This document shows positions 3,520 to 40,889 of a stretch of 41,725 bases of DNA, one piece after another. The translations under genes were made by a program, and so were the position numbers. The notes beneath the pieces were generated by a model. That model had not been told where the DNA came from, did not search any database, and worked only from the letters and a program-made list of their open reading frames with translations. Position 1 is the first letter of the stretch; each line of letters opens with the position of its first letter. Origin of the DNA: an uncultured Candidatus Saccharibacteria bacterium (lineage in GTDB: Bacteria > Patescibacteriota > Minisyncoccia > Minisyncoccales > JANBVM01); the NCBI GenBank assembly GCA_964548875.1, contig CAZJSP010000001.1, positions 1 to 41,725 of the forward strand, read 5' to 3'.

Positions 3520-5151
3520 TTAATTTTCTTCTAATAAATCTTCAATTAAATTAGACGTAAAAACAGGATGAGTTAAGCTTAAATTAGACTCAACCCAGGA
3601 ATCATAGCCTGTTATGATCGTCTCTTCTAAAAGAATGTTTTCTTCTTTATATTCTTCAGGTGTTATTTTAATTTGAAAGGCTATACTTAAATTCTCTTCT
3701 CCTCTTTCTAAATCTCCAGCTGACCAAACAATTTCTCTGGTTTCAGAATCAAAAGTAAAATTTGATAATTCCGTTTCTGGAAAAATTTCTCCAGTTAATT
3801 CAACATTATCAGGTAAAAAAGTTCTTACTTTCACGTTTTGAACATCCGAATAAATAGTTTTAGGATTCCAAATAATAGTATAGGTGGTTTCTTTCCCTTC
3901 TTCAGGTTCAATAGGCCCTTTATTGCCAAAAACCTCATCCTCATAATAGCCCCTTTGATTAATTTGTAATTTAGATTTTACTTTCGTACTAAAAGTTTGA
4001 GTTGTTTGACCAATAAAAATAGTATTTTGAATAAGGGGATTTTTAACATTTCCTAAGTCTTCTCTAACTCTAATCCAAAATTCTACCTTGCCCTCTTCTA
4101 AAGGAGATAAATATTGTAACTTAGGAATGTTTTTCCAATCAAAAACAATAGAATTGCCCCCTTCTTGATAGTCCCCATCATTAGATTGTGTAGTTGTAAA
4201 ATCAAGAACAGAGTCTTCAAATTGATTTACCATAAATAAATTGGTTAGGCTTTTGTCTCCGATATTCTTAAAATAGATTTTGTAGTGCAATAGCTCTCCA
4301 ACCGAAGTAACATGCTCAGGATTACCATTTATTTCTTGCTGCAAATAAATAGAAGATTTAACTATTTCTATTCCTTTAGAAGTCTCTTTTAAAACAATAA
4401 ACTGGCCATCTTTCCAAATTCCTATTTTAGCTTTAAAAATCTTAACATCACCAATACTACCAGAAAGACTTCCCGTAATATTAATTCCTCCCCCCTCCGA
4501 TTTATTTAAAACAGAAATGTCCCATTCAACATTTTCCATGCCATAGGGAGAAGAACTAATAAATTCAAAACCAGAAGGATAGTCTATCTGACACCTTAAA
4601 TCAATTAAGGGGTATTCAACATTAGAAAAATAATTTAATTTAAAATCAAAGTTCTTGTCTTCATTAACATTAGAAGGTAAATCAAAGCTTAAGGTTAAAG
4701 GAACAGAGCTAATTCTGGTCGAAAAAGAAGATGAAGATTCGTACCTAGCCTTTAAATCTTTAGGCTTATAAGAAATAGAGGCTTTAGCTATTTTAGTATC
4801 CCCCTCCTTGCCAAACAACCTAACTCGAATTGAAATATTTCTTTCTTCTCCTGGATAAATAGTACCTCCTAATTCTTCTGAATCAAAAACCTTAATATGA
4901 AATATTTCCTCGTCTCTTAGGGTATTTTCTGGAGCTTCAAAGACCAATTCGGGTTCTTCCAATCTAAAATCACCATTATTCTTGTATTTAATAATGTATT
5001 CTACTTCTTCGGCCAAAGTGACTTCTGTAGGACCTAATATTTCTATTCTTAACGCTTCTTTAGAATAGGTCCCTGTTTGCCACTGATAAACACCGAAAGC
5101 AACTACCAAGATAAAAATAATAATTAAAAATCTATTCATATTAATTGACAA
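3520..5151 (-). CDS. Membrane-anchored hypothetical protein with about four repeated beta-sandwich (DUF11/CARDB-like) modules
   Basis: 543 aa with an N-terminal TM/signal anchor (FLIIIFILVVAFGVYQW). Recurrent modules include EVEYIIKYKNNGDFRLEEPELVF and GELLHYKIYFKNIGDKSLTNLFMV. I recognise no catalytic motif. Confidence 0.6.
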   Translation of the reverse strand: MSINMNRFLIIIFILVVAFGVYQWQTGTYSKEALRIEILGPTEVTLAEEVEYIIKYKNNGDFRLEEPELVFEAPENTLRDEEIFHIKVFDSEELGGTIYPGEERNISIRVRLFGKEGDTKIAKASISYKPKDLKARYESSSSFSTRISSVPLTLSFDLPSNVNEDKNFDFKLNYFSNVEYPLIDLRCQIDYPSGFEFISSSPYGMENVEWDISVLNKSEGGGINITGSLSGSIGDVKIFKAKIGIWKDGQFIVLKETSKGIEIVKSSIYLQQEINGNPEHVTSVGELLHYKIYFKNIGDKSLTNLFMVNQFEDSVLDFTTTQSNDGDYQEGGNSIVFDWKNIPKLQYLSPLEEGKVEFWIRVREDLGNVKNPLIQNTIFIGQTTQTFSTKVKSKLQINQRGYYEDEVFGNKGPIEPEEGKETTYTIIWNPKTIYSDVQNVKVRTFLPDNVELTGEIFPETELSNFTFDSETREIVWSAGDLERGEENLSIAFQIKITPEEYKEENILLEETIITGYDSWVESNLSLTHPVFTSNLIEDLLEEN

Positions 5152-9965: not shown

Positions 9966-11528
9966 TTACATCTGCTCAGGAGCGCTCACTTCCATTATTT
10001 TTAAACAATCTCTTAAAACGATCCTACTCCCTATCACTAAAGCTATTCTTGCTTTCTGTAATTCCTTGTCTTCAATTAAAACGTGGCAATCTCGATAAAA
10101 TTGACTAAAGGCCTTAGCTAAATCAACGGCATATTGAGGAATTCTCTGGATCTGATAATCTTGGCTGGTTTTCTCAATAATTTCAGGATAGCAAATTAGC
10201 TCTTTGATTAATCCTAGTTCAGAAGAGTGTTGGAGCTTAGAAAAATCAAGATTATTAATATTTTTTCCTGCTTTTTCTAAAATACTACACATTCGAGCAT
10301 GAGCATACTGAACATAGTAAACAGGATTCTTATCAGACTTTTCTTTAGCTAAATTTAAATCAAAATTTAAATGTTTATCAGCCGATCTTTGTAAAAAGAA
10401 AAATCTAGCCACATCAACTCCTACTTCTTCTAATAATTCATCAACTGTCACATAAGTTCCAGCCCTTTTAGACATTTTCATTTTTTCTTTGCCTTGAAAA
10501 AGAGTTACAAACTGCAAAATAAGAGTTTCTAGTTTACCCTTAAAACCAATTGCTTCTACCCCCGCCCCTAAACCAGGAACATCTCCATGATGATCTGATC
10601 CCCAAACATTAATAACCCTATCAAAACTCTTCTCTTTAAATTTATAATAATGATGAGCTATATCTCCAGCCAAATATGTTTTGTCTCCGTTACTTTTAAT
10701 TAAAACTCTGTCTCTTTTATCTCCAAACTGAGAAGACTTAAACCAAACAGCTCCATCTTTCTTAAAGGTTAATTTTTTTTCTTCCAAAAGTTTAATAATC
10801 TTATCTACTAGGCCCGACTCATAAAAATCTTTTTCTGAAGTCCATTCATCATATTTAATTCTCATTTTATTAGTTGTCTTCTTAATCATTTCCTCCAGAA
10901 TAATTTGAGCTGCTCTTTCTCCAGCCCTAAAAGGGTCTTTTTCTTTTATTCTCTGACTTAATTCTTCAATATAATCTCCTTTATAAGCCGCTTTTTCATT
11001 TTTTAAAACTGAATGCCCTAAGGCAAGAATTTGGTTACCGCAATCATTAACATAATAGGCCTTTTCTGTTTGATAGCCTGCTTTAATTAAAATATTAGCT
11101 AAAGTATCTCCTAAAAAACCGCCCCTTGCGTTTCCAATAGTTAAGGGTCCAGTTGGATTGGCTGAAATAAATTCAACTTGTACTTTTTCTTCTTTCTTCT
11201 GTAAAGAACCAAAATTATCTTTTTTATTTAAAATTTTATTAATTTGATTATGCAAATAATCAGGAGAAAGGAAAAAATTAACAAATCCAGGTTTCTTAAT
11301 TTCTATTTTTTCAAATAATTGACCTTTCTTAATTTCTGCAACTAAAGCTTGAGCTATTTCAAGAGGGTTCTGTTTAATCTGATTAGCTAAAGACATGGCC
11401 ACATTAGTGGCATAATCTCCATGAATTTCTTCTTGGGGATATTCAATCTCAATTTCAAAATTTTTTACTTCCGGAAAAGCTTTTTGAATTGCTTGTTCTA
11501 TTAGATTCTTAATTTTATTTTTGGTCAT
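9966..11528 (-). CDS. argS: Arginine--tRNA ligase
   Basis: 520 aa. It carries SANPTGPLTIGNARGG (HIGH region), MSKRAGT (KMSKS-like) and the C-terminal DALR anticodon-binding region. Confidence 0.9.
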   Translation of the reverse strand: MTKNKIKNLIEQAIQKAFPEVKNFEIEIEYPQEEIHGDYATNVAMSLANQIKQNPLEIAQALVAEIKKGQLFEKIEIKKPGFVNFFLSPDYLHNQINKILNKKDNFGSLQKKEEKVQVEFISANPTGPLTIGNARGGFLGDTLANILIKAGYQTEKAYYVNDCGNQILALGHSVLKNEKAAYKGDYIEELSQRIKEKDPFRAGERAAQIILEEMIKKTTNKMRIKYDEWTSEKDFYESGLVDKIIKLLEEKKLTFKKDGAVWFKSSQFGDKRDRVLIKSNGDKTYLAGDIAHHYYKFKEKSFDRVINVWGSDHHGDVPGLGAGVEAIGFKGKLETLILQFVTLFQGKEKMKMSKRAGTYVTVDELLEEVGVDVARFFFLQRSADKHLNFDLNLAKEKSDKNPVYYVQYAHARMCSILEKAGKNINNLDFSKLQHSSELGLIKELICYPEIIEKTSQDYQIQRIPQYAVDLAKAFSQFYRDCHVLIEDKELQKARIALVIGSRIVLRDCLKIMEVSAPEQM

Positions 11529-12789
11529 TTAATTCTTTAGCTCTTTTTATATTAATATTTTTCTCTTTAATCATTTGTTCAATAACTCTTTCTCTTTTAT
11601 TTTGATCTACTCTGGCCGATCTTGCAACATTTTCAGCCCAAACCTTTTTATGACCCTTTGAAATCCCTTCTGAAGCTAAAGCTCTTAAGGCGGCTAGGTT
11701 TTGAGCTAATCCAACAGCTGCTATTATTTCAGCAAGCTCTTGAGCTGTCTGAACGTTTAAGATCTTAAGAGAAATCTTAGATAAAGGATGAGAATTAATT
11801 ATTCCTCCAATAGTTCCAACTACAACTGGAACAATCATTTCTCCAACTAATCCTCTTTTATCTTTCTTCCAATCAACTAAAGGTTGGCCCTCTTTTTGAA
11901 AAGAATAACCATAAACTCCTGCTTCTAAAGCCCGCCAATCATTTCCAGTCGCTAAAGCTACCGCTCCCATTCCATTTAAAATCCCCTTATTGTTAGTTAC
12001 CGCTCTATAAATATCTTTTTTGCCAAGAGAATGAATTTGTAAAATATTCTCTATAACTTCCTCTGTTTGAAAACCCTTCTTTTGTAAGGCTTTTTCAGTA
12101 ATTAAAGCTTTAACTTTAACTAGTCTTCTATCCGCTAAATTAGAAACAATTTTTAAAACAGGTTTTTTCCCCGTTTTTTCTTGAATAAAGGAGGCCGCTT
12201 TTTCGCTAAAAGAGCTAGCAATATTAGCTCCCATTGCATCTTTAACATCTATAATTAAATGAATTCTTAAAGCAGAACCGATCTTTTCGCCCTCTATTAG
12301 TTTAACTTCTAAATCTTTAACCCCACCCCCTATCTTTCGTAAGGTTGAGTCTTCTTGATTGGTAGAATTAATAATCTCTTCTTTAATTTTTAAAATTTCT
12401 TGTTTAAAAGACAAAGAATCTTTTAATTGTGTAAAATAAATTTGCCCAATCATTAAATTTTCCAAACTTTCAGAATTAATCCCTCCTCCATCTCTAGTTA
12501 ATTTAGCTCCATAAGAAGCAGCTGCCACTACTGAGGGCTCTTCTGTTACCATCGGAATAAAATATTCCTTTTGGTTAATTAAAAAATTATTAGCTACTGA
12601 ATAAGGAAGAGAAAAAGAACCAATTACATTTTCAGAAATTGCATTTCTGTCTTCTTTTTTTAAAAAACCTTTTTCAATTAATAAAATTTCTTTATCATTT
12701 AAACCAGCAAAGGTTCTAATAATCTTTCTTTTTTCTTTTTCATTTAATTTAAAAAAACCAGAAATATTGCTTTGTTTTTTTATTTTCAT
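11515..12789 (-). CDS. mvaA: Hydroxymethylglutaryl-CoA reductase, class II
   Basis: 424 aa. The motifs EEPSVVAAASYGAKL, DVKDAMGANI, NNKGILNGMGAVALATGNDWRA and AAVGLAQNLAALRALASEGISKGH match class II HMGR as I recall it from the S. aureus and P. mevalonii enzymes. The 3' end overlaps the argS start by 14 nt. Confidence 0.85.
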   Translation of the reverse strand: MKIKKQSNISGFFKLNEKEKRKIIRTFAGLNDKEILLIEKGFLKKEDRNAISENVIGSFSLPYSVANNFLINQKEYFIPMVTEEPSVVAAASYGAKLTRDGGGINSESLENLMIGQIYFTQLKDSLSFKQEILKIKEEIINSTNQEDSTLRKIGGGVKDLEVKLIEGEKIGSALRIHLIIDVKDAMGANIASSFSEKAASFIQEKTGKKPVLKIVSNLADRRLVKVKALITEKALQKKGFQTEEVIENILQIHSLGKKDIYRAVTNNKGILNGMGAVALATGNDWRALEAGVYGYSFQKEGQPLVDWKKDKRGLVGEMIVPVVVGTIGGIINSHPLSKISLKILNVQTAQELAEIIAAVGLAQNLAALRALASEGISKGHKKVWAENVARSARVDQNKRERVIEQMIKEKNINIKRAKELNDQK

Positions 12790-16549: not shown

Positions 16550-17560
16550 TTAAATTATCTTAACACCCTCTACTCCAATATTACCAATCAACGAATTATA
16601 ACCTTTTTTTAAAAAAATTTCTTGCATCCTCTTCAACTCCTCTTCTTTAGTTAAAACCAAACAACATCCTCCTCCCCATCCTCCTGTTGGTTTTGCTCCT
16701 AAAGCTCTATTATCCAAGGCAATTTCTATGATTTCATCAAGCTTGTCTGTAGAAAGATCAAGTTTGCTAAGCTCCCAATAATATTTATTCATTAATTTTC
16801 CCAACTCAATAAACTTCTTATTCCTTAATTCATTTAAGGCTCTTTTAGATAAATCATCTAAATTATCTAAAACAAAATTAACGGTCTGAGCAAATTTCTT
16901 CTTTTTTTCTCTTAAATAAGAAACCATTTCCCCTGTCTGGGCATCTTCACCACTATCAACAATTAAAAGAGGAATGCGAAAATCAATATCTAAAATTTTA
17001 ATGCCTTTTGATTTTTGATATTGCAAATATCCTCCGTAAGTCACAATGTTATTATCTATTCCTGAGGGAGTTCCACCATGAGCAATAATATCTCCCAAAT
17101 AAGCGAAATTAGAAATTTGATCTTTAGATAACCCTTTTTCAAGAGCCGTTGTTACGGATAGAGCCAGAGAAGCAAAAACCGCAGAACTAGAACCTAAGTT
17201 TTTAGGGATTTCTGATTCAATTTCAATTTTTAGTCCCTGAAAACCATATTTATTTAAAATACTAGCAACAACAAAAAAACTAGGAGCAAGAAAATTATCC
17301 TTACTTAACTTGTTAATGCTATTAAAATCATCTTTTTTAATAAAACCCCTTATTTCTTTTAAAAATAAAAACAAATCTTCCTGATCAAAAGATTTGTGAA
17401 TCTTTAAACTATTACAGCCAATACTAATATGGTCTTCATCAGTTAAAGAAGTTCGAACCCTACATCTTTTATCGAAAGTGCAAGCAATTCCTAGTTTATC
17501 ATAAACAACAGCATGCTCGCCAAATAAAATGACTTTACCAGGAGCAGAAGCGGTAACCAT
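16550..17560 (-). CDS. mvk: Mevalonate kinase (GHMP kinase family)
   Basis: 336 aa. It has the N-terminal APGKVILFGEHAVVY, GHMP motif II (PKNLGSSSAVFASLA) and the C-terminal KPTGGWGGGC. Confidence 0.8.
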   Translation of the reverse strand: MVTASAPGKVILFGEHAVVYDKLGIACTFDKRCRVRTSLTDEDHISIGCNSLKIHKSFDQEDLFLFLKEIRGFIKKDDFNSINKLSKDNFLAPSFFVVASILNKYGFQGLKIEIESEIPKNLGSSSAVFASLALSVTTALEKGLSKDQISNFAYLGDIIAHGGTPSGIDNNIVTYGGYLQYQKSKGIKILDIDFRIPLLIVDSGEDAQTGEMVSYLREKKKKFAQTVNFVLDNLDDLSKRALNELRNKKFIELGKLMNKYYWELSKLDLSTDKLDEIIEIALDNRALGAKPTGGWGGGCCLVLTKEEELKRMQEIFLKKGYNSLIGNIGVEGVKII

Positions 17561-17570
17561 TTGGATTTAT

Positions 17571-17825
17571 TTAGATTTTATAAATCTTATAGCCCTCTCT
17601 TACCTTTTGCTCAAACTTCAAACCAACTGCATCTCCTTTCTTCGCTTTTTCAATCTTCTCTTTATCTTGTTCCATTGATTCAACCACTTGATCAAATTCT
17701 TTCTCTCCTCCTATTATTCTAATCTTATCTCCCACTTTTAATTTATCAAACAACTTAATAACTCCTACTTTTAAGTTGCCATAAAAATGGGTTACTTCTC
17801 CTATTTTTTTACCTTGTTTAGGCAT
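17571..17825 (-). CDS. Small EF-Tu-domain-2-like beta-barrel protein
   Basis: 84 aa. The pattern IGEVTHFYGNLKVGVIKL...LKVGDKIRIIG...KGDAVGLKF resembles stand-alone translation-factor domain II barrels. It is the first gene of the mevalonate-kinase operon. Confidence 0.5.
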   Translation of the reverse strand: MPKQGKKIGEVTHFYGNLKVGVIKLFDKLKVGDKIRIIGGEKEFDQVVESMEQDKEKIEKAKKGDAVGLKFEQKVREGYKIYKI

Positions 17826-18049: not shown

Positions 18050-18078
18050 ATTATACACGAAATAAATATTTTTGTCAA
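18050..18078 (-). promoter_or_regulatory. Consensus sigma70-type promoter
   Basis: On the minus strand: TTGACA (18078..18073), exactly 17 nt (AAAATATTTATTTCGTG), then TATAAT (18055..18050). It lies 12 nt downstream of the Trm9-like stop codon. The predicted TSS is about 18042..18044. Confidence 0.65.
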
Positions 18079-18090
18079 AAAAACAAATTG

Positions 18091-18786
18091 TTATTTCTTT
18101 TGGGCTATGATATAAAGATTTTGACGGCTCTTGTCATCACTTTCAACAATCCCCTCTTTAACTACTTTAAAGCCGGCTTTTTTGACTAATTTCCTTAATT
18201 CTTTTTGAGAAAAGAAGTGATAATAGCGATCTACCTTGTCGCCCCAAGGAACAAGGATGTCTCTATAATCTAGCTTTGTCTTTCCTAAAATTTTTAAAAA
18301 TAAATTTTTAATGATAGAAATAATGTGCTCAATTTTATAAAGTTTCCAAACTGTTAAAATCAATAATCCCTTAGGCCTTAAAACTCTTTTAGCCTCGTTT
18401 AAAAATTGCAATCTTAAATCTTTAGATGGAATTTGATGTAAAACAGCTATACTATAAACCTTATCAAAAAAACGATCTTTAAAAGATAAATTTAAAGCAT
18501 TATCTACTCTAAAGTTTTTTTGAGGGTATTTTTTCCTAGCTTCTTTAATTAATTCAACTGAGATATCAGCCCCATAATAATCAGCCAGTTTCTCATCAAA
18601 ATATATTATATTACGACCATTACCACATCCTAAATCTAATACTCTGTCTCCTGCAAACAAATAATCACTAAACAAAAACCTAATTTCATACCAAGGATTA
18701 CTCCTGGTTCTAGAAAAATCTTTTGCAATTAAATCGTAATTACGATTAACTCTGTCTAATAAATATTTTGCGTATTCTTTATCCAT
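18091..18786 (-). CDS. Class I SAM-dependent methyltransferase, Trm9/ALKBH8-MT-like (putative tRNA cm5U34 methyltransferase)
   Basis: 231 aa. Its motifs are FSRTRSNPW, VLDLGCGNGRN (SAM motif I), SIAVLHQIPS, ILVPWG and RYYHFFSQKELRKLVKKAGF. These parallel yeast Trm9 as I recall it (FSQTRYKPW, DVGCGNGKY, SIAVVHH, VFVPW, RYYHLYREGEL..AG). It is divergently adjacent to Elp3. Confidence 0.7.
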   Translation of the reverse strand: MDKEYAKYLLDRVNRNYDLIAKDFSRTRSNPWYEIRFLFSDYLFAGDRVLDLGCGNGRNIIYFDEKLADYYGADISVELIKEARKKYPQKNFRVDNALNLSFKDRFFDKVYSIAVLHQIPSKDLRLQFLNEAKRVLRPKGLLILTVWKLYKIEHIISIIKNLFLKILGKTKLDYRDILVPWGDKVDRYYHFFSQKELRKLVKKAGFKVVKEGIVESDDKSRQNLYIIAQKK

Positions 18787-20368
18787 GAAACATAAAAAAC
18801 AAATAATTCAAAGTCTAATCCAAAGCGAAATTAAAAATTCGCAAGATTTAGATTCTTTTAAGCGAAAAATAGCTAAAAAATATAAAATAAAACTATTTAC
18901 AAACGTTCAGCTACTTAAAGCCTATCATAAACTATTAAACAATAGGGAAATTCAAAAGTCAAGGAAGATAGAAGGCCTTCTAAAAACAAGCCCTGTTCGT
19001 TCTTTATCTGGAATAGTTAATGTTTCAGTCTTAACAAAAGAATATGAATGCCCCGGAAAATGTATTTATTGCCCTAAAGAAGAAGGGCTTCCAAAAAGCT
19101 ATCTATCGGGAGAACCAGCAGTAGAAAGAGCAAAATCTCTAGATTATGATCCTTACAAACAAACAAAAGAAAGAATTATAATGTTAAAAGAACAGGGGCA
19201 TCCAGTCGACAAAATAGATTTAAGAATTATAGGAGAAACATGGTCTCACTACCCAAAAAAATATCAAACTTGGTTTATTAAAGAATGTTTTAATGCTTGC
19301 AATAAAAAGAAAAGCAAAACCTTAAAAGAAGCTCAAAAAAGAAATGAAAAAGCAGAAAACAGAATTGTTGGGCTTTCGATTGAAACAAGGCCTGATTTTA
19401 TTGATAAAAAAGAAATTAAAAGATTAAGAAGATTAGGGGTAACTAAAGTAGAAATAGGAGTTCAAAGCATTAATGATAGAATTCTTCGTTTAAATAAAAG
19501 AGGGCATAAGGTCAAAGCGACTATTCAAGCTACAAAATTATTAAAAGATGCTGGATTTAAGGTCTCCTACCAAATCATGCCTAATTTATTTGGCTCAACC
19601 CCTAAAAAAGATTTAAAACAATTTAAAGAAATATTCCATAACCCTAATTTTCAACCTGATTTTATTAAAATATATCCCTGTGCCCTACTAGAATCAACTC
19701 CTCTGTTTAAATTGTATAAAGAAAAGAAATATAAACCTTATTCTAAAAAAGAGCTAATTGATTTAATTAAAAATATTAAAAAAATAACTCCTTTCTATAT
19801 CAGAATAGTAAGAATTATTAGAGATATCCCTGCCCAACAAATTATAGCTGGTCCAGCTAAAATATCTAACTTAAGACAAATTATTCAAAAAGAAATGGAA
19901 GAAGAAGGTTGGCAATGTCGATGCATCAGATGTAGAGAAGTTAAAGATCAATTTAAAAAAGAAGAAAAACCTTTCTTTTTTAGAGAAGATTATGACTCTT
20001 CAGAAGGAAAAGAGATATTCTTAACTTTCGAAAACAAAACAAGAAGCAAACTTTATAGTATTTTAAGATTAAGGATTCCTTCTTATTCTTTAAAGAAAGA
20101 AAAACATTTTTTAAAAACCTTAAACAATAGTTCTATTATTCGAGAACTGCATACTTATGGACAACTCACTCCAATTTCCAAGAAAGGAAAATCTTCTCAA
20201 CACAAAGGATTAGGTAAAAAGCTCATTAAGAAGGCTGAAAAAATCACTCAAAAAGAATTCCATCTTGATAAAATAGCAATAATATCAGGTATTGGAGTCC
20301 GCCAGTATTATCGCAAAATAGGATATAAATTAGACGACACCTACATGGTTAAAAAAATAACCAAATAA
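18785..20368 (+). CDS. elp3: Elp3-family radical SAM / lysine-acetyltransferase-fold protein (tRNA uridine-34 carboxymethyl synthase homolog)
   Basis: 527 aa. Elp3 hallmarks are present: SPVRSLSGIVNVSVLT, the Fe-S cluster motif CPGKCIYCP, LPKSYLSGEPAVERA, YDPYKQ and GHPVDKIDLRIIGETWS. The C-terminal GNAT/KAT domain carries RELHTYGQ...QHKGLGKKLIKKAE...ISGIGVRQYYRKIGY. Confidence 0.85.
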   Translation: MKHKKQIIQSLIQSEIKNSQDLDSFKRKIAKKYKIKLFTNVQLLKAYHKLLNNREIQKSRKIEGLLKTSPVRSLSGIVNVSVLTKEYECPGKCIYCPKEEGLPKSYLSGEPAVERAKSLDYDPYKQTKERIIMLKEQGHPVDKIDLRIIGETWSHYPKKYQTWFIKECFNACNKKKSKTLKEAQKRNEKAENRIVGLSIETRPDFIDKKEIKRLRRLGVTKVEIGVQSINDRILRLNKRGHKVKATIQATKLLKDAGFKVSYQIMPNLFGSTPKKDLKQFKEIFHNPNFQPDFIKIYPCALLESTPLFKLYKEKKYKPYSKKELIDLIKNIKKITPFYIRIVRIIRDIPAQQIIAGPAKISNLRQIIQKEMEEEGWQCRCIRCREVKDQFKKEEKPFFFREDYDSSEGKEIFLTFENKTRSKLYSILRLRIPSYSLKKEKHFLKTLNNSSIIRELHTYGQLTPISKKGKSSQHKGLGKKLIKKAEKITQKEFHLDKIAIISGIGVRQYYRKIGYKLDDTYMVKKITK

Positions 20369-31215: not shown

Positions 31216-33126
31216 ATGGGAAAGAAAAAGAAGAACAAGATTAAAATTTTTTTAAAAATTATTCTTTCTGTAATTTCAGTAGGAATAATTATTTTTTTAT
31301 TTCTATTCCTTTATTACGCAAAAGATTTCCCTCGACCTGAAGTATTTATAGAAAGACAATTAATCCAATCAACTAAAATTTATGACCGAACAGGAGATAT
31401 TCTTTTGTATGAAATTTATGGAGAAGAAAAAAGATCCTGGGTTCCACTAGAAGATATGCCCGATCATCTCCAAAAAGCAGTTATCGCGACAGAAGATGCT
31501 CACTTTTATAATCATATCGGAGTAGATTTAAGAGGAATTATTAGGTCTGTTTTAATTAATTTAGAAATAGGAAAACTTTCAGTGGGAGGATCAACCATTC
31601 CCCAACAGTTAATCCGATCAACTTTTCTTTCTCCAGAAAAAACAATTGAAAGAAAATTTAGAGAAATTATTTTATCAATAGAATTAAATAGAAGATATTC
31701 TAAAGATAAAATACTAGAGTGGTATTTAAATCAAGTCCCCTTCGGACAAAATGCTTACGGAGTAGAAGCAGCTAGTCAAACATATTTTAAAAAAAATATT
31801 TCGGAGATTACAATTCCAGAAGCTGCTGTTTTAGCTAGTTTAATTCAGGCTCCTTATCGGTATTCTCCTTACGGAGAAAACATAGATCTTCTTTTAACAA
31901 GAAAAGATTTTGTTTTAGAAAAAATGTATCAAGAAGGCATTATTACAGAAGAAGTCTTAGAAGAAAGCAAAAATGAGGAAATTATTTTTGAAAAACAAAC
32001 TGAAAACTTTAAGGCTCCCTATTTTACTCTTTGGGTTAAACAACAATTAGAAGAAAGGTATAGTCAAGAATTTTTAATGAAAAAAGGATTAAAAATTTAT
32101 ACTTCTTTAGATTGGGAAATTCAAAAAATAGCTGAGGAAGAAACCAAAAAGGGAGTTTTAAACAATCATTCTTTTAATGCTTATAACGCTGGAATAGTTG
32201 CAATTAATCCCCAAACAGGCGAAGTTTTAGCTATGTCAGTAGGAACAGGAAACTATTACGACAAACCTCTTCCAACAGGATGTAACCCTGGAGTAGATTG
32301 TGCTTTTGATCCGCAAATAAATATTGTTTTAGGAACAAAAAACAATCCAGGTAGACAGCCTGGATCAGCCTTTAAATCTTTTATTTATGCGACAGCTTTT
32401 AACCAAGGATTTAACGATGAAGATACTGTTATCGATGAAGAAACAAATTTTGGAGTTTGGGGGGGAGAGGAATACATTCCTCAAAACTATGATGAAAAAT
32501 TTAGGGGAGAAGTAACATTAAGAGAAGCATTAGCTCAATCTCTTAATATTCCATCTATCAAAGTTTTAATTGATTTAGCTGGTCTTGAAGAAAGTGTTAA
32601 GCTAGCTGAAGATCTTGGTATTACCACTCTTAGACCTCCTTATGGACCTTCTATCGTTCTAGGAGGTTGGGAAACAAAATTAATAGAAATGACTTCCGCA
32701 TATGGGGTTTTTGCAACTAACGGATTAAAAATTTCCCCTGTTTCTATTTTAAAAATAGAGGATTTAGATGGAAATATAATTGAAGAAAATAAAAGAACTC
32801 CAAAAAGAATTATACCTCAAAACACAGCATCACTAATCAATAGTATCCTCTCCGACAATGAGGCTAGAGCGCCCATGTTTGGCGAATATTCAATGCTCTA
32901 TATCCCTACCTATCAAGTCGCAGCAAAAACAGGGACAACTCAGAATTATAGGGATGCCTGGACTATTGGATATACTCCTTCTATAGTAACGGGAGTTTGG
33001 GTTGGGAACAACAATGATGAATCAATGGAAGAAAAGCCCAGCGTTGTCTTAGCTGGACCTATTTTTAATAACTTTATGAGAAAAGTTTTGCCACTCTTAC
33101 CCCAAGAAAATTTTAGTTCGCCTTAA
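31216..33126 (+). CDS. Class A penicillin-binding protein (PBP1A family; glycosyltransferase plus transpeptidase)
   Basis: 636 aa. It has an N-terminal TM helix, GT51 motifs (ATEDAHFYNHIGVD, GGSTIPQQL, REIILSIELNRRYSKDKILEWYLN), a transpeptidase SxxK (GSAFKSF) and KTGT (AKTGTT). Confidence 0.85.
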   Translation: MGKKKKNKIKIFLKIILSVISVGIIIFLFLFLYYAKDFPRPEVFIERQLIQSTKIYDRTGDILLYEIYGEEKRSWVPLEDMPDHLQKAVIATEDAHFYNHIGVDLRGIIRSVLINLEIGKLSVGGSTIPQQLIRSTFLSPEKTIERKFREIILSIELNRRYSKDKILEWYLNQVPFGQNAYGVEAASQTYFKKNISEITIPEAAVLASLIQAPYRYSPYGENIDLLLTRKDFVLEKMYQEGIITEEVLEESKNEEIIFEKQTENFKAPYFTLWVKQQLEERYSQEFLMKKGLKIYTSLDWEIQKIAEEETKKGVLNNHSFNAYNAGIVAINPQTGEVLAMSVGTGNYYDKPLPTGCNPGVDCAFDPQINIVLGTKNNPGRQPGSAFKSFIYATAFNQGFNDEDTVIDEETNFGVWGGEEYIPQNYDEKFRGEVTLREALAQSLNIPSIKVLIDLAGLEESVKLAEDLGITTLRPPYGPSIVLGGWETKLIEMTSAYGVFATNGLKISPVSILKIEDLDGNIIEENKRTPKRIIPQNTASLINSILSDNEARAPMFGEYSMLYIPTYQVAAKTGTTQNYRDAWTIGYTPSIVTGVWVGNNNDESMEEKPSVVLAGPIFNNFMRKVLPLLPQENFSSP

Positions 33127-34243
33127 TAGGCATAATAATATAAAGGTATTCATCCTTACTATTAACTGAACTAAGAGTTGCTGGACCCTCCTTAGAGGTC
33201 AATTTAAACTGAACCTTATCTCCTTGAATTTCAGATATTCCATCAATTAAAAACCGATAATTAAAATTGATTTTAATATTATTTCCTTTAATTACTCCCT
33301 TTAAAGAACTCTTATACTCCCCCAAATCAGAATGTTGACTAGAAATCTCAATATTCTTTTCTTTTTGGTTTATTTTAATTTTAACCTCATTAATCTTGCC
33401 ACTAAAAAGACTAGCTGATTTAACTTGATTTAAAAATTCCTCTTTGTTTACTTGAATAGTAGTCTTGTATTTATCAGGAATAATTTCTTCGTAATTAGGA
33501 TACCTCCCCTCAATTAATCTAGAAATAAATTTTATTTCTGATTGAGAAGTTTTATCAATTAGATGTTGGAATAAAATTAAATTAGGAGAAATTTTAATTT
33601 TCAAATCTCCTTTTTTATCAGTTAAAACTCCTAATAATTCTTTAGCCGCCATCTGAGGTAAAATTAAAGAATATTCTTTTTTTAAATTGGACTGAATATT
33701 GATCTTCTTTTCTGCTAATCTAAAACTATCAGTAGCTACCATTTTAATTTCTTTTCTCTTAAAAACAAAATAAATTCCTGTAATTTCAGGTTTAGTACTA
33801 GAAGAGGTGGGAATACTGATAACTTGATTTAAAGCTTCACAGAATTTTTTAGAATTAATTTTGATTTCTTCTTTTGATTCAACTTCAGGGGTAACAGGAA
33901 AATCCTCAGGATCTAATCCTTTAATTTTAGTTTTATAATTTCCACATTCTATTTTTAAACTATTATTTTTACTAGATTCTATGGTAATTGTTTTATCTGG
34001 TAAAGAACTAATAAAGCCAGATAATATTTTAGTTGGAATACAAATAGAGCCTTCTTTTTTGACTTGAGCCAAGCTTTGCCAATTAATGCTTGATTCTAAA
34101 TTAGTAGTAGAAAGTTTTAAAATATTCTTTTCTGTTTTTAATAAAATATTTTGTAAAATTGGTAACTTAAGAGACTTTTGAGAAATCTTTTCAACAGTTT
34201 TTAACCCCTCTTTTAATTTCTCTTTTAATATAATTAATTTCAT
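33113..34243 (-). CDS. dnaN: DNA polymerase III beta sliding clamp
   Basis: 376 aa with a three-domain clamp layout. It lies immediately downstream of dnaA. Confidence 0.9.
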   Translation of the reverse strand: MKLIILKEKLKEGLKTVEKISQKSLKLPILQNILLKTEKNILKLSTTNLESSINWQSLAQVKKEGSICIPTKILSGFISSLPDKTITIESSKNNSLKIECGNYKTKIKGLDPEDFPVTPEVESKEEIKINSKKFCEALNQVISIPTSSSTKPEITGIYFVFKRKEIKMVATDSFRLAEKKINIQSNLKKEYSLILPQMAAKELLGVLTDKKGDLKIKISPNLILFQHLIDKTSQSEIKFISRLIEGRYPNYEEIIPDKYKTTIQVNKEEFLNQVKSASLFSGKINEVKIKINQKEKNIEISSQHSDLGEYKSSLKGVIKGNNIKINFNYRFLIDGISEIQGDKVQFKLTSKEGPATLSSVNSKDEYLYIIMPIKAN

Positions 34244-34419
34244 TGTTATTGTTATTGGTCTTAATTTTTTTAAATGTATTTTATCTTATTTAAACTGGGC
34301 ATTACTTGTTAGTTTGTTATGGATAAGATGATGAAAAAAGTGTTAATTAGTAGCTTTTTTATTTTGCTGATTTTTTATTCACTATTTATTAATACTTTTT
34401 CCACTATGTTTTCCACTGA
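34244..34419. promoter_or_regulatory. Candidate oriC / DnaA-box cluster in the dnaA-dnaN spacer
   Basis: There are four DnaA-box-like 9-mers: TATGGATAA (34318..34326, the reverse complement of TTATCCATA), TTATTCACT (34375..34383), TTTTCCACT (34397..34405) and TTTTCCACT (34409..34417). An AT-only tract at about 34262..34300 could act as an unwinding element. Confidence 0.4.
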
Positions 34420-35769
34420 TTAAGAACAAATAATATTGTTTTTAATTAGTTCAATTTCCTCTTCCAATTTTTCATTATTTTTTATTTCTTTAGATATTTT
34501 TCTGCAAGAATGGATTGCAGTTGTATGGTCTTTTCCTCCGAACTTTCTTCCAATAAAAGGGAAGGAAGATTTTAATTCATTTCTTAATAAATACATGGCC
34601 ACCTGTCGAGGTTTTACTATTTCTTTTTTTCTAGAGGAAGACGCTATTTCTTTAATGCTTAAGTTATAGAAGTTAGCAACAGCATGAATTATTTTTTTAG
34701 AATTAATATTTCTTTTAGGAGAATTAATTATATTCTTGAGTAATAGCTTGGTTACTTTAAGATCGGGAGTTTTTTTATTGAGTTGTTTGTGGGCGACAAT
34801 AATATTTAAGGCGCCTTCTAATTCTCTAATATTTCTTTGAATTTTACTTGCTACATAATCTAAAACCTCTTCTGAAAGTTTAATTTTTCTTTCCTGACAT
34901 TTTGTTTTTAAAATTGCAATTCTAGTTTCTAGCTTAGGGCTAGAAATATCGGCAATCATTCCTCCTTCAAAACGAGATCTTAATCTTTCAGTTAAGGTTG
35001 CGATTGATTTTGGAGATCTATCAGAGGATAGAATTATTTGCTTGTTTTCTCCGTAAAGAGAATTAAAGATAAAGAAAAACTCTTCTTGAGTTTTTTCTTT
35101 GCCTGATAAAAATTGAACATCATCGACTATAAGAGTATTAATTTCCTTGTATTCCTTTCTTAGTTTTTCTACTTTTCTGTTTCTAATTGCAGAAATAATA
35201 TTAGAAACAAATTTTTCAGTTGGAACATATTTTACCTTATTATTTTTTTCCTGTTGAGCAATACTATTACCAATAGATTGAAGAAGGTGGGTTTTTCCTA
35301 ATCCTACCCCCCCATATATAAACAAGGGATTGTAAACCTTTCCAGGTTTTTGAGCCACAGCTGAAGATGCAGCATGAGCCAATTCATTAAAAGGACCAAT
35401 AACAAAATTATCAAAACTATATTTGGGATTTAAATTAGTATCTTTTTGTTTTTGAAAATTATCAAAATCTAGTTGATCTTCTTCCGAGGTTGTATTAATT
35501 GCTTGTTCTAAAATTTGAAAATCAGAACTTTGGACTTTGTACTTAATATTTTTGATACCACGATCAATATCTCTTAAAATTTTTAAAATGTTTTTATTAT
35601 ACTTTTTTAAAAACCAGTTTTTAGCGAAAGCGCTAGGAACAGAAACAGTTACAGAGCTATTATCTCTAGAAACAATATTTGTGTCTTGAAACCAAGTGTC
35701 AAAGCTTGCATTAGATATTTGTAATTGCATTTGGGCTAAAACAGCCTGCCAAAGTTCTTGTTGAGTCAT
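34420..35769 (-). CDS. dnaA: Chromosomal replication initiator DnaA
   Basis: 449 aa. It has Walker A (GGVGLGKTHLL), Walker B (LIVDDVQFL), sensor motifs and the C-terminal DNA-binding signature (FGGKDHTTAIHSCRKI). Confidence 0.95.
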   Translation of the reverse strand: MTQQELWQAVLAQMQLQISNASFDTWFQDTNIVSRDNSSVTVSVPSAFAKNWFLKKYNKNILKILRDIDRGIKNIKYKVQSSDFQILEQAINTTSEEDQLDFDNFQKQKDTNLNPKYSFDNFVIGPFNELAHAASSAVAQKPGKVYNPLFIYGGVGLGKTHLLQSIGNSIAQQEKNNKVKYVPTEKFVSNIISAIRNRKVEKLRKEYKEINTLIVDDVQFLSGKEKTQEEFFFIFNSLYGENKQIILSSDRSPKSIATLTERLRSRFEGGMIADISSPKLETRIAILKTKCQERKIKLSEEVLDYVASKIQRNIRELEGALNIIVAHKQLNKKTPDLKVTKLLLKNIINSPKRNINSKKIIHAVANFYNLSIKEIASSSRKKEIVKPRQVAMYLLRNELKSSFPFIGRKFGGKDHTTAIHSCRKISKEIKNNEKLEEEIELIKNNIICS

Positions 35770-35797
35770 AAGACTTTTTAATTAATTTTATACGTTA

Positions 35798-35827
35798 ATT
35801 ATACATTAAAAAAACAAAGAATGTAAA
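35798..35827 (-). promoter_or_regulatory. Candidate dnaA promoter
   Basis: On the minus strand: TTTACA (35827..35822), an 18-nt spacer, then TATAAT (35803..35798). It lies about 28 nt upstream of the dnaA ATG. Confidence 0.4.
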
Positions 35828-35897
35828 ATAAGAACAAAGCCTCTTTTTTTGTTAACAACCTGGGTAAAAACTGTGGATTCTTTTTTTGAAAAATAAA

Positions 35898-35927
35898 TTG
35901 ACTTGATTATTTTTTTATGGTTAAAAT
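35898..35927 (+). promoter_or_regulatory. Candidate rpmH promoter
   Basis: TTGACT (35898..35903), an 18-nt spacer, then TAAAAT (35922..35927). The rpmH ATG at 35935 is 7 nt after the -10 element. Confidence 0.45.
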
Positions 35928-35934
35928 GATAGAT

Positions 35935-36069
35935 ATGGCAATTACAAAAAAACCTAAAAAAAGGAAAAGGAAAAGAAAGCACGGCTTCCTCAAAAGAAAA
36001 TCAACAAAGGCGGGGAAGAATGTTGTGAAAAAGAGACGGAAAAAAGGGCGCAAAAAATTAACTGCGTAG
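35935..36069 (+). CDS. rpmH: 50S ribosomal protein L34 (below the ORF-track size cutoff)
   Basis: My own translation is [44 protein letters not shown] (44 aa). It carries the L34 core HGF..R..T..G..V...RR.KGRK.L and sits in the canonical rpmH-rnpA-yidC-jag order. In-frame ATGs also exist at 35917 and 35926. Confidence 0.85.
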
Positions 36070-36074
36070 TTTTT

Positions 36075-36413
36075 ATGCTACCCCTTAAAAATCGTTTAAA
36101 AAAGAAGAAAGATTTTGAAAGGATATTTAACCAAGGCAAATCTTTTAAACACGATTGTTTGGTTCTAAGAATTCTTGAGAATGATTTAGGTTATAATAGA
36201 TTTGGATTTGTTGTTTCTAAGAAAGTTTCTAAAAAGGCAGTTGTACGAAATAGAATAAAGAGAATGTTAAGAGAAATTGTTAGACAGGGTGATGTTAAAA
36301 TAAAAGAAGGATTTGATATTGTAGTTATTGCTTTAATTGGAATTGAAAACAAGAAATTTCAAGAAATTAAAAAAGAATTTTTAAATCTTATTTTAAAAAC
36401 AAAAATATTATGA
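36075..36413 (+). CDS. rnpA: Ribonuclease P protein component
   Basis: 112 aa with LKKKKDFERIF, RFGFVVSKKVSKKAVVRNRIKRMLRE (the RNR motif), plus its gene context. Confidence 0.85.
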   Translation: MLPLKNRLKKKKDFERIFNQGKSFKHDCLVLRILENDLGYNRFGFVVSKKVSKKAVVRNRIKRMLREIVRQGDVKIKEGFDIVVIALIGIENKKFQEIKKEFLNLILKTKIL

Positions 36414-37084
36414 TAGGTGATTTTTTCAATCAATTTTTATATCGTCCCCTTCTCAACATATTAGTAATAATTTGTTTATTAATTCCTGGTCAAAATTTTG
36501 GCCTAGCTATTATTGCGACCACTGTTCTTTTAAAAGTTATATTATATCCTTTAACTAAAAAAAGTCTTAAGAATGGTAAAAGCCTTCAAAAAATTCAGCC
36601 AGAATTAAAAAAAATTCAGAAAAAATTTAAAGGAGATGAAATGAAACAAGCCGCAGAAATTAAAAATCTTTATGAAAAGCATGATATCAACCCCTTTAGT
36701 GCTTTTGTTCCTCTTCTAATTCAATTTCCTGTTTTAATTGCTCTTTATAGAGTTTTCTTAAAGGGAATGAATGAAGGGGCTTTGTATGATTTTGTGCCTT
36801 CTCCAACAGATATAAGTTTTTCTTTTTTAGGGATTAATCTGACTAATCCTAGTGTTGTTATGACAATGATTGCTGCTATTATTTATTTTTTCCAAATGAA
36901 AAATACCTCGAAGGTCAAAGGTAAAAGCAAAAAAGGATTTCAGGATAAAATGCCCTACTTTTTTAGTGTCTTCACTTTCTTTATTCTAGTAAAATTCCCA
37001 GCTGCAGTTTCTCTTTATTTAGCTGTTTCTTCACTATTTCTTGTTACTCAAAATTATTTTTTACATAAAAATGAATCTCAATAA
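36410..37084 (+). CDS. yidC: Membrane protein insertase YidC (short Oxa1-like form)
   Basis: 224 aa with FGLAIIATTVLLKVILYPLTKKS, KIQPELKKIQKKFKGD and PLLIQFPVLIALYRVF. Confidence 0.85.
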   Translation: MIGDFFNQFLYRPLLNILVIICLLIPGQNFGLAIIATTVLLKVILYPLTKKSLKNGKSLQKIQPELKKIQKKFKGDEMKQAAEIKNLYEKHDINPFSAFVPLLIQFPVLIALYRVFLKGMNEGALYDFVPSPTDISFSFLGINLTNPSVVMTMIAAIIYFFQMKNTSKVKGKSKKGFQDKMPYFFSVFTFFILVKFPAAVSLYLAVSSLFLVTQNYFLHKNESQ

Positions 37085-37526
37085 TTTAGAAAAAATTAAA
37101 AAAGAAATAAGGGATTTTTTTAAAAAAACAACCTTTGATTTAGATATTAATATTTCTTTGAGAGAAGACTCTACTATTGCCATAGATATTACCAGCTCAG
37201 AACCTCAGATTTTAATAGGTGAAGGAGGATCAACCTTATCAGATATGCAAAAATTATTAAAAATTATTATTAAGAAAAAGATTAAAGAAAATATTTACGT
37301 TGATTTAGATGTTAATAATTACAAGAAAAAGAAGATTTCTCACTTAAAAGACCTCGCTCAAAAAACAGCCGATGAAGCAGTTTTAATGAACGAAGAAAAA
37401 GTGTTGACTTCAATGAACCCTTATGAAAGAAGAGTGGTTCATCTAGAGTTAGCGAAAAGACTGAATGTTTCTACTGAAAGTACAGGAGAAGATCCTAATA
37501 GAAGAATAATTATTAAGCCCTGTTAA
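37071..37526 (+). CDS. jag: Jag/KhpB-like RNA-binding protein (KH plus R3H domains)
   Basis: A C-terminal R3H signature is present (YERRVVHLELAK...STESTGEDPNRRIIIKP). I prefer the ATG at 37071 (MNLNNLEKIKKEI) over the track start at 37041, which would overlap yidC by 44 nt. Confidence 0.75.
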   Translation: MNLNNLEKIKKEIRDFFKKTTFDLDINISLREDSTIAIDITSSEPQILIGEGGSTLSDMQKLLKIIIKKKIKENIYVDLDVNNYKKKKISHLKDLAQKTADEAVLMNEEKVLTSMNPYERRVVHLELAKRLNVSTESTGEDPNRRIIIKPC

Positions 37527-37582: not shown

Positions 37583-37966
37583 TTAAAAAGAAGGGAATTC
37601 AAAAGTTGTTAGCTCAGGATTAATGACTTGCAAAATAAGGTAAGCTGATAAAATAACAATCAATCCTATTGCCGCTGCCTTTATTCTGTCTTGTGCCTCT
37701 TTTATTTTACTTGGGTTGCCCATAGATGATGTCCATTCAAAACCTCCCCAAACAAACATAAAAAAAGCTGAGAATCCAGAAATCCCTATAATAAAGTAAT
37801 AAAGCCAAGCAATAAGCTCATCAGGCGTAGTAGAGCCTTCTAATTTAATTCCTCCGAATTCGGGATATTCTAAATTTAACTCCAAATCAGCTCTTACTTT
37901 TTGAAAACTAAGAAGTAGAACCGACAAAATAGAAAACAATAATATTATTTTAATTCTTTTTTTCAT
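37583..37966 (-). CDS. TrbC/VirB2-like T4SS pilin candidate
   Basis: 127 aa. It has a signal peptide (cleavage probably after VRA), then two hydrophobic helices (YYFIIGISGFSAFFMFVWGGF and AAAIGLIVILSAYLILQVI) separated by a short basic loop. This is the VirB2/TrbC topology, and the gene lies directly downstream of VirB4. Confidence 0.55.
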   Translation of the reverse strand: MKKRIKIILLFSILSVLLLSFQKVRADLELNLEYPEFGGIKLEGSTTPDELIAWLYYFIIGISGFSAFFMFVWGGFEWTSSMGNPSKIKEAQDRIKAAAIGLIVILSAYLILQVINPELTTFEFPSF

Positions 37967-37984
37967 TTTTATATTATAACATAA

Positions 37985-39859: not shown

Positions 39860-39860
39860 T

Positions 39861-40493
39861 TTATTTTATTAATTCAGGTGGAATATTAGGATATTGGCCC
39901 ATCTCTTCCTTTTCTGGATGATATAGGCCCCATAATAATTCTATTATTTCTGCTGTGCTTAAAGAATTACATTGTAATCCACACCTTTTTAGTCCCATAG
40001 CTAAAAACTGCATTCTTTGGATTAATTGAGATCTAGCTCTTTGGAACCTTTTATCGCTTAATTCTTGTTTTTCCTCCTCTTTCTCTTTCTTTGTAGGTAT
40101 TTCTCTTAGTTCTCCAAAATTAAAAGGGATAACAACATAAAAGCTTTTTGACATAATTGATCCTCCTCTAATTATTTCTCTTATAAAATTACCATATTCT
40201 CTAATTTGAGTTTTTAATAAATTATTTGTTTCTCTTTCGGCCAATTCTTTTAATTTATCTAAATAGCTTGAAATATTAAGCTTTCTTGACTGGACAACTA
40301 TTTCTGCTGAAAAATCTAAAGAATTTAAAAAACTTTGGAATTGATGGATAATAATTCTTTTCTCTTCTTCAGCCTTTAAAGCAAAATTCATTGAAGAGAC
40401 CATTAAAATACCTCTCAGTGTTTTATTCTTTAAAACTATCACCCCTTCTTTAATTTCATCAAATTCTAAAAATTGTTGAGTTGCTCCCTTCAT
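39861..40493 (-). CDS. VirB4 N-terminal-domain-like protein (separately encoded)
   Basis: 210 aa. The pattern FDEIKEGVIVLKNKTLRGILMVSSMNFALKAEEEKRIIIHQFQSFLNSLDFSAEIVVQSR matches the N-terminal module of full-length (about 800 aa) Gram-positive VirB4/TrsE/PrgJ-type ATPases as I recall them. Its stop is separated from the ATPase ATG by 1 nt (TAA-A-ATG). Confidence 0.5.
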   Translation of the reverse strand: MKGATQQFLEFDEIKEGVIVLKNKTLRGILMVSSMNFALKAEEEKRIIIHQFQSFLNSLDFSAEIVVQSRKLNISSYLDKLKELAERETNNLLKTQIREYGNFIREIIRGGSIMSKSFYVVIPFNFGELREIPTKKEKEEEKQELSDKRFQRARSQLIQRMQFLAMGLKRCGLQCNSLSTAEIIELLWGLYHPEKEEMGQYPNIPPELIK

Positions 40494-40888: not shown

Positions 40889-40889
40889 A

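Follow-up and report, generated by a model that had tools for sequence, protein, structure and literature searches.

Does a divergent pair of genes for Elp3 and a Trm9-like methyltransferase, found on a 41.7-kb contig of an uncultured Candidatus Saccharibacteria bacterium (CAZJSP010000001.1; the whole stretch of 41,725 nucleotides is called the window below), encode a two-step pathway for the tRNA wobble uridine (U34) of the kind known from eukaryotes and archaea? An earlier note on this DNA had read the pair as an mcm5U-type (5-methoxycarbonylmethyluridine) pathway, and had reported a 231-residue open reading frame (ORF) on the reverse strand and a 527-residue ORF on the forward strand; both are found exactly where it put them, together with all of the motifs that it quoted for the two proteins, which in the methyltransferase are FSRTRSNPW, VLDLGCGNGRN, SIAVLHQ, ILVPWG, and RYYHFF. 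We conclude that the pair is probably a eukaryotic/archaeal-type wobble-uridine module in a bacterium, in which Elp3 would make 5-carboxymethyluridine (cm5U34) and its divergent neighbor would convert this to mcm5U34; the family membership of Elp3, the Trm9 active-site residues of the methyltransferase, and the conserved adjacency of the two genes all support such an interpretation, from which the two activities are predicted.

That the 527-residue protein is a member of the Elp3 family is not in doubt. It passes the curated NCBIfam model TIGR01211 with 563 bits (cut-off 350, E=5.5e-169), residues 7-525 of 527 aligning with model positions 2-522 of 522, and the full Elp3 architecture claimed from its motifs is thereby borne out along the entire length. 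Pfam Radical_SAM (PF04055, 61 bits) and Radical_SAM_C (PF16199, 80.9 bits) are both over cut-off, GNAT is slightly under (21.5 vs 23.6 bits), and ELP3_N gives a sub-threshold match at residues 5-73. Solved Elp3 structures are matched at E values from 1e-131 to 1e-98 (1e-131 for M. infernus, 1e-119 for Dehalococcoides mccartyi, and about 1e-100 for the eukaryotic proteins), in an alignment that extends to residue 524 and covers the QHKGLG loop. The cysteine triad of the radical S-adenosylmethionine (SAM) site is one residue shorter than archaeal CPHGKCIFC; the linker cysteine cluster corresponds to a zinc motif described for bacterial and archaeal Elp3s (PMC6367351); and further motifs are YDPY (121-124), GHPVDK (138-143), RELHTYG (453-459), and GIGVRQYY (502-509). 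In composition, the N-terminus resembles the archaeal tRNA-recognition extension, which archaeal Elp3s require for tRNA binding and which the Dehalococcoides enzyme lacks (PMC6367351). Bacterial and archaeal Elp3s are by themselves tRNA-dependent acetyl-CoA hydrolases or cm5U synthases, with cm5U34 formation shown for the archaeal M. infernus enzyme and supported for that of D. mccartyi (PMC6367351, PMC13315578); the literature on bacterial Elp3, which calls the protein rare (PMC6367351) or finds it in "numerous bacteria" (PMC13315578), always treats it alone (PMC6367351, PMC13315578).

The divergent neighbor had been described as more specific than a generic SAM methyltransferase, and a comparison with solved structures identifies Trm9 as its top relative by sequence, profile, and fold, and as the sole match aligned through the VPW...RYYH insert. 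Specifically, i) the best match of the single sequence in the PDB is 5cm2_Z (8e-14, 55 bits; runner-up 43.5 bits), chain Z of 5CM2 being Trm9 in its Yarrowia complex with Trm112; ii) a profile built from 40 relatives again puts 5cm2_Z first (2e-21, 79.8 bits; runner-up 67.5 bits); and iii) an AlphaFold2 (AF2) model with a Rossmann-type fold (predicted local distance difference test, pLDDT, 94.4) retrieves 5cm2_Z at rank 1 in Foldseek, with a template-modeling (TM) score of 0.82 on the target. Among Pfam families, only those of generic class-I SAM methyltransferases match, Methyltransf_11 at 75.4 bits; the top NCBIfam matches are DVU_1556-family, UbiE/MenG, and CpaM models, each far under its cut-off. 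The earlier note had named a UbiE-type identity as fatal to its proposal, and no UbiE/MenG model comes near its cut-off, with TIGR01934 at 54.5 bits against 158.35 and the PRK00216 sub-models at 28-49 bits against 216-351. The family comprises 267 representative clusters at E<=1e-30, and several of its JGI records already bear the names TRM9 or ALKBH8. Relatives align from residue 1 of the 231-residue protein; the NCBI gene call (P0001, 194 residues, 84% coverage) leaves out the conserved N-terminal 37 residues (18676-18786), the catalytic R28 included, an omission probably due to the overlap of the true ATG with that of Elp3. By eye, two of the family representatives, P0217 (500 residues) and P0260 (492 residues), carry a Trm9-like domain fused to a C-terminal WecG/TagA glycosyltransferase-like domain.

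Does the likeness reach the active site? In yeast Trm9, Létoquart et al. found that R29A, D72A, H116A, W145A, W168A, R241A, Y243A, and N271A abolish or strongly reduce activity, and their model has R29 and H116 at the cm5U carboxylate, N271 and H115 at the uracil, and W145 stacked against the base (PMC4678810). We counted conservation at these positions per alignment column in 145 family representatives, each at most about 50% identical, with Yarrowia numbering as the bridge (Table 1). D51 and D74 of the window protein are invariant and motif I (D.GCGNG) is present; as in eukaryotic Trm9, the residues defined by mutagenesis are conserved in the bacterial family, which on this alignment resembles Trm9 in its active site and not in fold alone.

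If the two proteins act in one pathway, is their pairing retained in relatives? We carried out two independent searches, seeded with Elp3 in contigs from one genome per species and with the methyltransferase in metagenome contigs, and the adjacency described in the earlier note persists in both. The methyltransferase gene is divergent from Elp3 and abuts it in 11 of the 12 Elp3-seeded loci, the exception (L012) having an N-terminally shorter Elp3, and Elp3 lies head to head with the methyltransferase in all 26 testable metagenome loci, 4 of the 30 real methyltransferase-seeded loci having been set aside for less than 250 nt of upstream sequence. Grouped at 95% identity, these loci come to about 30 distinct sequences, and at 60% to 12 groups; they are labelled Parcubacteria/Paceibacterota, Nealsonbacteria, Magasanikiibacteriota, and others, and include a complete 661-kb Nealsonbacteria genome. 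The flanking genes turn over, and the next most conserved neighbor is found in 16 of 34 loci.

Some individual loci deserve separate description. Only in L024 (787-2397) do the two genes stand apart, an insert of about 1.6 kb separating their start codons. L010 (CAZSCF010000001.1) is labelled 'uncultured Bdellovibrionales bacterium', a label that may be wrong: its Lys/Ile/Asn-rich proteins and CATG-overlapping pair look like those of the Candidate Phyla Radiation (CPR; Patescibacteria), and its methyltransferase has an insertion of about 45 residues after beta-3 and RFHH where others have RYYH. In L045, the complete Nealsonbacteria genome (CP061210.1), the RNA repair genes RtcB and RtcA (RNA 3'-phosphate cyclase; 3536-4975 and 18489-19535) are found no more than 10 kb from the Elp3/Trm9-like pair, as are an MJ0043_C-family gene and a cluster resembling benzoyl-CoA reductase/2-hydroxyglutaryl-CoA dehydratase.

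The pairing can be traced well outside the CPR. The Dehalococcoides protein used for structural work had been cited as an isolated bacterial Elp3 homolog, and this proves not to be so. When the D. mccartyi Elp3 sequence, taken from the PDB alignment, was located in a complete genome, a divergent 224-residue Methyltransf_11 gene appeared 43 nt upstream, encoding a protein that is 32% identical to the window enzyme (E=1e-26) and that, in the multiple alignment, keeps all of the Trm9 functional positions (RHR, D, FHH, TVWN, VPW, RYY, and RN). Of 6 testable Dehalococcoidia-type loci, 5 have this arrangement, among them that of D. mccartyi, and one lacks it; one further locus was untestable. Since the Dehalococcoides Elp3 has the same divergent neighbor, we conclude that bacterial Elp3 is paired in this way generally and not in the lineage of the window alone, and that divergent linkage is near-universal in the CPR and Dehalococcoidia. 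The Dehalococcoides methyltransferase goes unmentioned in the literature searched, the 2016 paper on the D. mccartyi Elp3 (DmcElp3) structure (PMC5018218) lying outside that search; papers there that name both Dehalococcoides and Trm9 merely cite this structure paper.

Trm9 of eukaryotes works with Trm112, and the question arises whether the bacterial enzyme does so too. In Yarrowia Trm9, a hydrophobic core of V59, F78, V102, A110, P112, and F116 is buried by Trm112, and Trm9 is insoluble alone because this core is normally covered by its partner; in yeast, the double mutation N89K/L91R breaks the Trm9-Trm112 complex. Among the bacterial representatives, the V59 position is Lys or Arg in 102 of 144 and hydrophobic in 7, the F78 position is mostly Asp, Glu, Asn, or Lys, with a hydrophobic residue in 13 of 143, and the equivalent of V102 and of yeast L91 is R93 in the window protein, a change akin to the complex-breaking L91R. 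F116 and D117 are kept, yet they are part of the generic Methyltransf_11 "FD" motif. The remark in the earlier note that no Trm112 partner is visible in the window also stands: a scan of small ORFs in the gene gaps for paired CxxC motifs (CxxC...CxxC) met just the ribosomal proteins L35, L34, and S20 and low-complexity ORFs, and no Trm112-like ORF was found in the CPR loci. Taken together, the charged Trm112 patch and the lack of a Trm112 in the window suggest a stand-alone enzyme, judged by one eukaryotic reference structure with its alignment and by a scan of the window and the CPR loci.

One small protein in the Dehalococcoidia-type loci was considered as a Trm112 analogue and rejected. A four-cysteine zinc-ribbon ORF of 72-75 residues (KI.CP.C...GS.SL.D..Y.GPY.CWKCR) follows the methyltransferase in all five such loci that have the pair, and the databases return only a Dehalococcoides hypothetical protein for it. 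It has no match to Trm112p (PF03966) at E<=1 and no PDB profile match, its AF2 model (pLDDT 80) gave insignificant LysW-type fold matches only, and it has no counterpart in the CPR loci. In four of the Dehalococcoidia-type loci (L047, L048, L050, and L051), a RuvB-QueH-GNAT acetyltransferase block adjoins the pair upstream of the methyltransferase; QueH, an epoxyqueuosine reductase, is another wobble-base tRNA enzyme.

The two activities, their product, the tRNAs acted on, and the independence from Trm112 are inferred, in the following scheme. Elp3 would bind tRNA through its basic N-terminus and, with acetyl-CoA in the lysine acetyltransferase (KAT) domain and a 5'-deoxyadenosyl radical generated from SAM at the [4Fe-4S] cluster, would place a carboxymethyl group on C5 of U34 to give cm5U34. 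The Trm9-like enzyme would then use SAM to methyl-esterify the carboxylate, converting cm5U34 to mcm5U34; in this step the carboxylate would be held in position by R28 and H117/Q118, and the uracil would be recognized by N223 and stacked upon by W147. The methyltransferase, in contrast to its eukaryotic counterpart, would probably work without a Trm112 partner, and the likely substrates are tRNAs for the A- or G-ending codons of split boxes.

The start codons of the two genes overlap by 2 nt in a CATG with no intergenic DNA, an arrangement shared by 17 of 40 loci; in 28 of 40 the geometry lies between a 6-nt overlap and an 8-nt spacer, and this geometry is kept down to 32% methyltransferase identity. 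The antisense of the first 12 or so methyltransferase codons (window 18740-18790) is highly conserved, reading TCtAATAaATATTT.GC.TATTCTTTaTC|CATG in L001, L004, L005, L010, L013, L014, L020, L021, and others, and includes a -10-like TATTCT at positions -12 to -7 of the Elp3 ATG; no Shine-Dalgarno sequence precedes either start at the junction, and nothing comparable to TATTCT is found on the methyltransferase side. Leaderless or mutually embedded divergent promoters could produce this pattern, and protein conservation together with AT bias accounts for it equally well. We do not claim a leaderless promoter at the CATG: TATTCT is the antisense of conserved K-E-Y codons, and variable synonymous sites are under no additional constraint. 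A more ambitious reading would have at least two distant bacterial lineages, the Patescibacteria/CPR and the Dehalococcoidia, make the supposedly eukaryote-only mcm5U34-family nucleosides by this minimal two-gene module, with a Trm9 that needs no Trm112 and with expression coupled at the CATG junction, since a shared junction without intergenic DNA would imply leaderless or mutually embedded divergent promoters; we entertain it tentatively, inclining slightly toward doubt.

Several observations weigh against a cm5U34 to mcm5U34 module. Neither Pfam nor NCBIfam contains a Trm9 model; Trm9 leads the generic methyltransferases by a modest 12 bits or so, and a fold search is unable to separate class-I methyltransferases, generic ones scoring close, which is why the Trm9-defining residues were tested. 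Automatic annotation in JGI calls some members of the family "TRM9" or "alkB family protein 8", after KEGG Orthology (KO), and others "UbiE", and the D. mccartyi methyltransferase by itself ranks Trm9 only 7th in the PDB. Eukaryotic Trm9 is both inactive and insoluble without Trm112. The window protein has one departure from the yeast residue set, Q118 in place of an essential histidine whose replacement in yeast (H116A) inactivates the enzyme (PMC4678810); roughly half of the closest relatives have Gln here and the rest His. The earlier likening of SIAVLHQ to Trm9 had overlooked the Gln at H116. Finally, yeast trm9 mutants are reported to accumulate 5-carbamoylmethyluridine (ncm5U) rather than cm5U (PMC3110198), so that even in yeast it is not entirely settled which step follows which.

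Such observations invite the suggestion that the methyltransferase is generic, acting on a small molecule or other substrate in the manner of UbiE/MenG, ArsM, or BioC, and that it adjoins Elp3 by shared regulation or inherited synteny. The exclusively generic Pfam matches, the models that head the NCBIfam list, the many records named UbiE, and the closeness of generic methyltransferases to Trm9 in the fold search would all fit; however, every NCBIfam match falls far short of its cut-off (54.5 vs 158 bits for UbiE/MenG), catalytic residues specific to Trm9 and outside the SAM-binding core are conserved, and the pairing persists where the flanking genes have been completely replaced and occurs in two distant phyla. 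A quinone methyltransferase, moreover, would have no obvious substrate in the CPR, which are reported to lack electron transport chains (PMC7507113), and we regard a generic enzyme as quite unlikely. The methyltransferase might instead be tied to Elp3 and yield a different end product, by acting on another xm5U intermediate or atom or at another tRNA position. What archaea make of U34 downstream of Elp3 is heterogeneous or unknown (PMC2584109, PMC5372719), the window protein has Q for H116, W168 is Phe in 28 of 143 representatives, Y243 varies, and the N-terminal substrate-binding segment of the Dehalococcoides homolog is divergent; against this, the set that positions the cm5U carboxylate and uracil (R29, H115, R241, N271, and W145) is conserved, and carboxyl methylation is the simplest chemistry for a Trm9-like site beside a cm5U synthase, so that a different product seems unlikely to us.

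It is very improbable that Elp3 is a protein or other acetyltransferase and that the pair modifies a target other than tRNA. Elp3 used to be annotated as a histone acetyltransferase, a name that persists in PDB entries, but the Elp3s of bacteria, archaea, and eukaryotes hydrolyze acetyl-CoA only in response to tRNA and not to histone or tubulin peptides (PMC6367351), and the window protein retains intact both the basic N-terminus for tRNA binding and the radical-SAM site. We retain the two-step wobble-uridine module, cm5U34 followed by mcm5U34, as the preferred reading.

Canonical bacterial routes to modified U34 are MnmE-MnmG-MnmC, which leads to (c)mnm5U, and CmoA-CmoB-CmoM, which leads to (m)cmo5U. 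The Elp3/Trm9-like pair would share their target, position 5 of the wobble U34, and CmoM likewise methyl-esterifies a U34 side-chain carboxylate, but the enzyme families and chemistry are unrelated. The closer parallel is with eukaryotic Elongator followed by Trm9-Trm112 or ALKBH8-TRMT112, in which the same two catalytic families act in the same order as predicted here and Elp3 has an identical architecture; unlike the eukaryotic system, the loci of the bacterial pair have no Elp1, Elp2, or Elp4-6 and no visible Trm112, the Trm112 patch is charged, the window genes are arranged head to head, Gln replaces H116, and the host is a bacterium. As in archaea, Elp3 is stand-alone with an extended basic N-terminus, and its best solved match is the archaeal M. 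infernus protein. Archaeal Trm9 orthologs are reported only in Sulfolobales and Halobacteriales (PMC5372719), and the Haloferax volcanii Trm9 (HVO_1032) partners with Trm112 (PMC5372719, PMC6144793), in contrast to the window family, which is bacterial, very widespread, and apparently partner-free. DmcElp3 (PDB 5L7J) is likewise a bacterial stand-alone Elp3 with a divergent Trm9-like methyltransferase, but it is a short form of 459 residues without the N-terminal extension, its methyltransferase has RHR where the window enzyme has RTR..PW, and a zinc-ribbon ORF absent from CPR loci follows.

The earlier note knew of no described bacterial Elp3-Trm9 pair, and we too found no bacterial description: the literature searched holds no paper on Elp3 together with the CPR and none on a "bacterial Trm9". 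For archaea, a cluster of the Elp3 and Trm9 genes had been reported as early as 2008, in Sulfolobus solfataricus (PMC2584109). Reviews state that mcm5U has no known occurrence in bacteria or is restricted to eukaryotes (PMC4615748), and that homologs of the methyltransferases that partner with Trm112 are undetectable in bacterial genomes (PMC5372719). We wish to stress that the bacterial pair is a predicted extension of a known pathway and of known enzyme families, not a new mechanism; partner independence and overlapping divergent starts are possible variant features.

Table 1. Coordinates and supporting evidence for features of the Elp3/Trm9-like locus (window positions unless a locus is named; residue counts are from the family alignment)
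Feature	Position	Strand	Evidence
Trm9-like class-I SAM methyltransferase, predicted cm5U34 carboxyl O-methyltransferase (to mcm5U)	18091..18786	-	PDB, profile, fold, residues, linkage
R28 = yeast R29 / Yarrowia R40, proposed cm5U-carboxylate binder	18703..18705	-	R in 140/143
D74 = yeast D72 (beta-2 acidic residue)			D in 143/143
H117-Q118 = yeast H115-H116 (carboxylate/uracil positioning)	18433..18438	-	alignments
H117 = yeast H115			H in 133/145
Q118 = yeast H116 (Yarrowia H127)			H in 133/145, Q in 7
W147 = yeast W145			W in 143/144
W181 = yeast W168			W 108 + F 28 of 143
R187 = yeast R241			R in 126/145
Y189 = yeast Y243			variable; aromatic or aliphatic throughout
N223 = yeast N271			N in 138/145
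CATG, overlapping divergent start codons, no intergenic DNA	18784..18787	.	2-nt overlap
Elp3, radical-SAM + KAT/GNAT, predicted tRNA U34 cm5U synthase, long form with basic N-terminal extension	18785..20368	+	TIGR01211, PDB matches
Elp3 basic N-terminal region, residues 1-75	18785..19009	+	19 Lys/Arg vs 5 Asp/Glu; ELP3_N match
Radical-SAM [4Fe-4S] cysteine triad CPGKCIYC, residues 89-96	19049..19072	+	aligns with M. infernus and D. mccartyi cluster motif
Linker cysteine cluster CRCIRC, residues 378-383	19916..19933	+	Zn site conserved in bacterial/archaeal Elp3
KAT-domain acetyl-CoA binding loop QHKGLG, residues 472-477	20198..20215	+	aligns with QHxGxG of solved Elp3
84-residue beta-barrel protein, downstream neighbor of the methyltransferase	17571..17825	-	EF-Tu domain 2 / Peptidase_U32_C-like, sub-threshold (23 and 22 bits)
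Zinc-ribbon ORFs of Dehalococcoidia-type loci	L047:4423-4650; L048:4387-4605; L050:2967-3185; L051:2691-2909; L052:3002-3226	- (all)	

The 84-residue beta-barrel protein was considered as a third subunit and rejected: it is present, always co-directional, in 16 of the 27 loci with enough flanking sequence, it is absent from the divergent loci, and a perfect TTGACA-17-TATAAT sigma-70-like site (18078..18050, reverse strand) lies just upstream of its gene. We conclude that it is a lineage-restricted neighbor and not a core part of the module. Directly downstream of it lies a GHMP-kinase (mevalonate kinase-like) gene (16550-17560, reverse strand), and, judged by eye, 11515-12789 (reverse strand) may be a second mevalonate-pathway gene; to our knowledge, genes for isoprenoid synthesis by the mevalonate route are unusual in most bacteria.

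The window has a GC content of roughly 30% and carries dnaA, dnaN, rpmH, rnpA, yidC, ribosomal protein genes, the mevalonate kinase-like gene, and type IV secretion genes, the gene set of a CPR/Patescibacteria genome. An origin-proximal cluster of dnaN-dnaA and rpmH-rnpA-yidC-jag (KH/R3H) occupies 33113-37526; unlike in many bacteria, mnmE and mnmG do not occupy the canonical position after rnpA-yidC-jag in the window, and type IV secretion genes follow on the opposite strand (T4SS pilin, TraG/VirB4-like ATPase, and PrgI-like; 37583-41345). No tRNA genes were found in the window.

A widespread, linked bacterial Elp3/Trm9-like pair contradicts both review statements (PMC4615748, PMC5372719), would extend the Elongator-type wobble pathway to all three domains, and would give the structurally best-studied bacterial Elp3, that of Dehalococcoides, a missing downstream enzyme. 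The prediction is directly testable because D. mccartyi can be cultivated and both proteins are small. If no Trm112 is needed, the bacterial methyltransferase would be the first partner-independent Trm9, a simple and soluble enzyme on which to study catalysis by Trm9/ALKBH8 and what Trm112 adds to it. For the biology of the CPR, the pair would add a concrete archaeal/eukaryote-like trait to the translation apparatus of these ultra-small bacteria.

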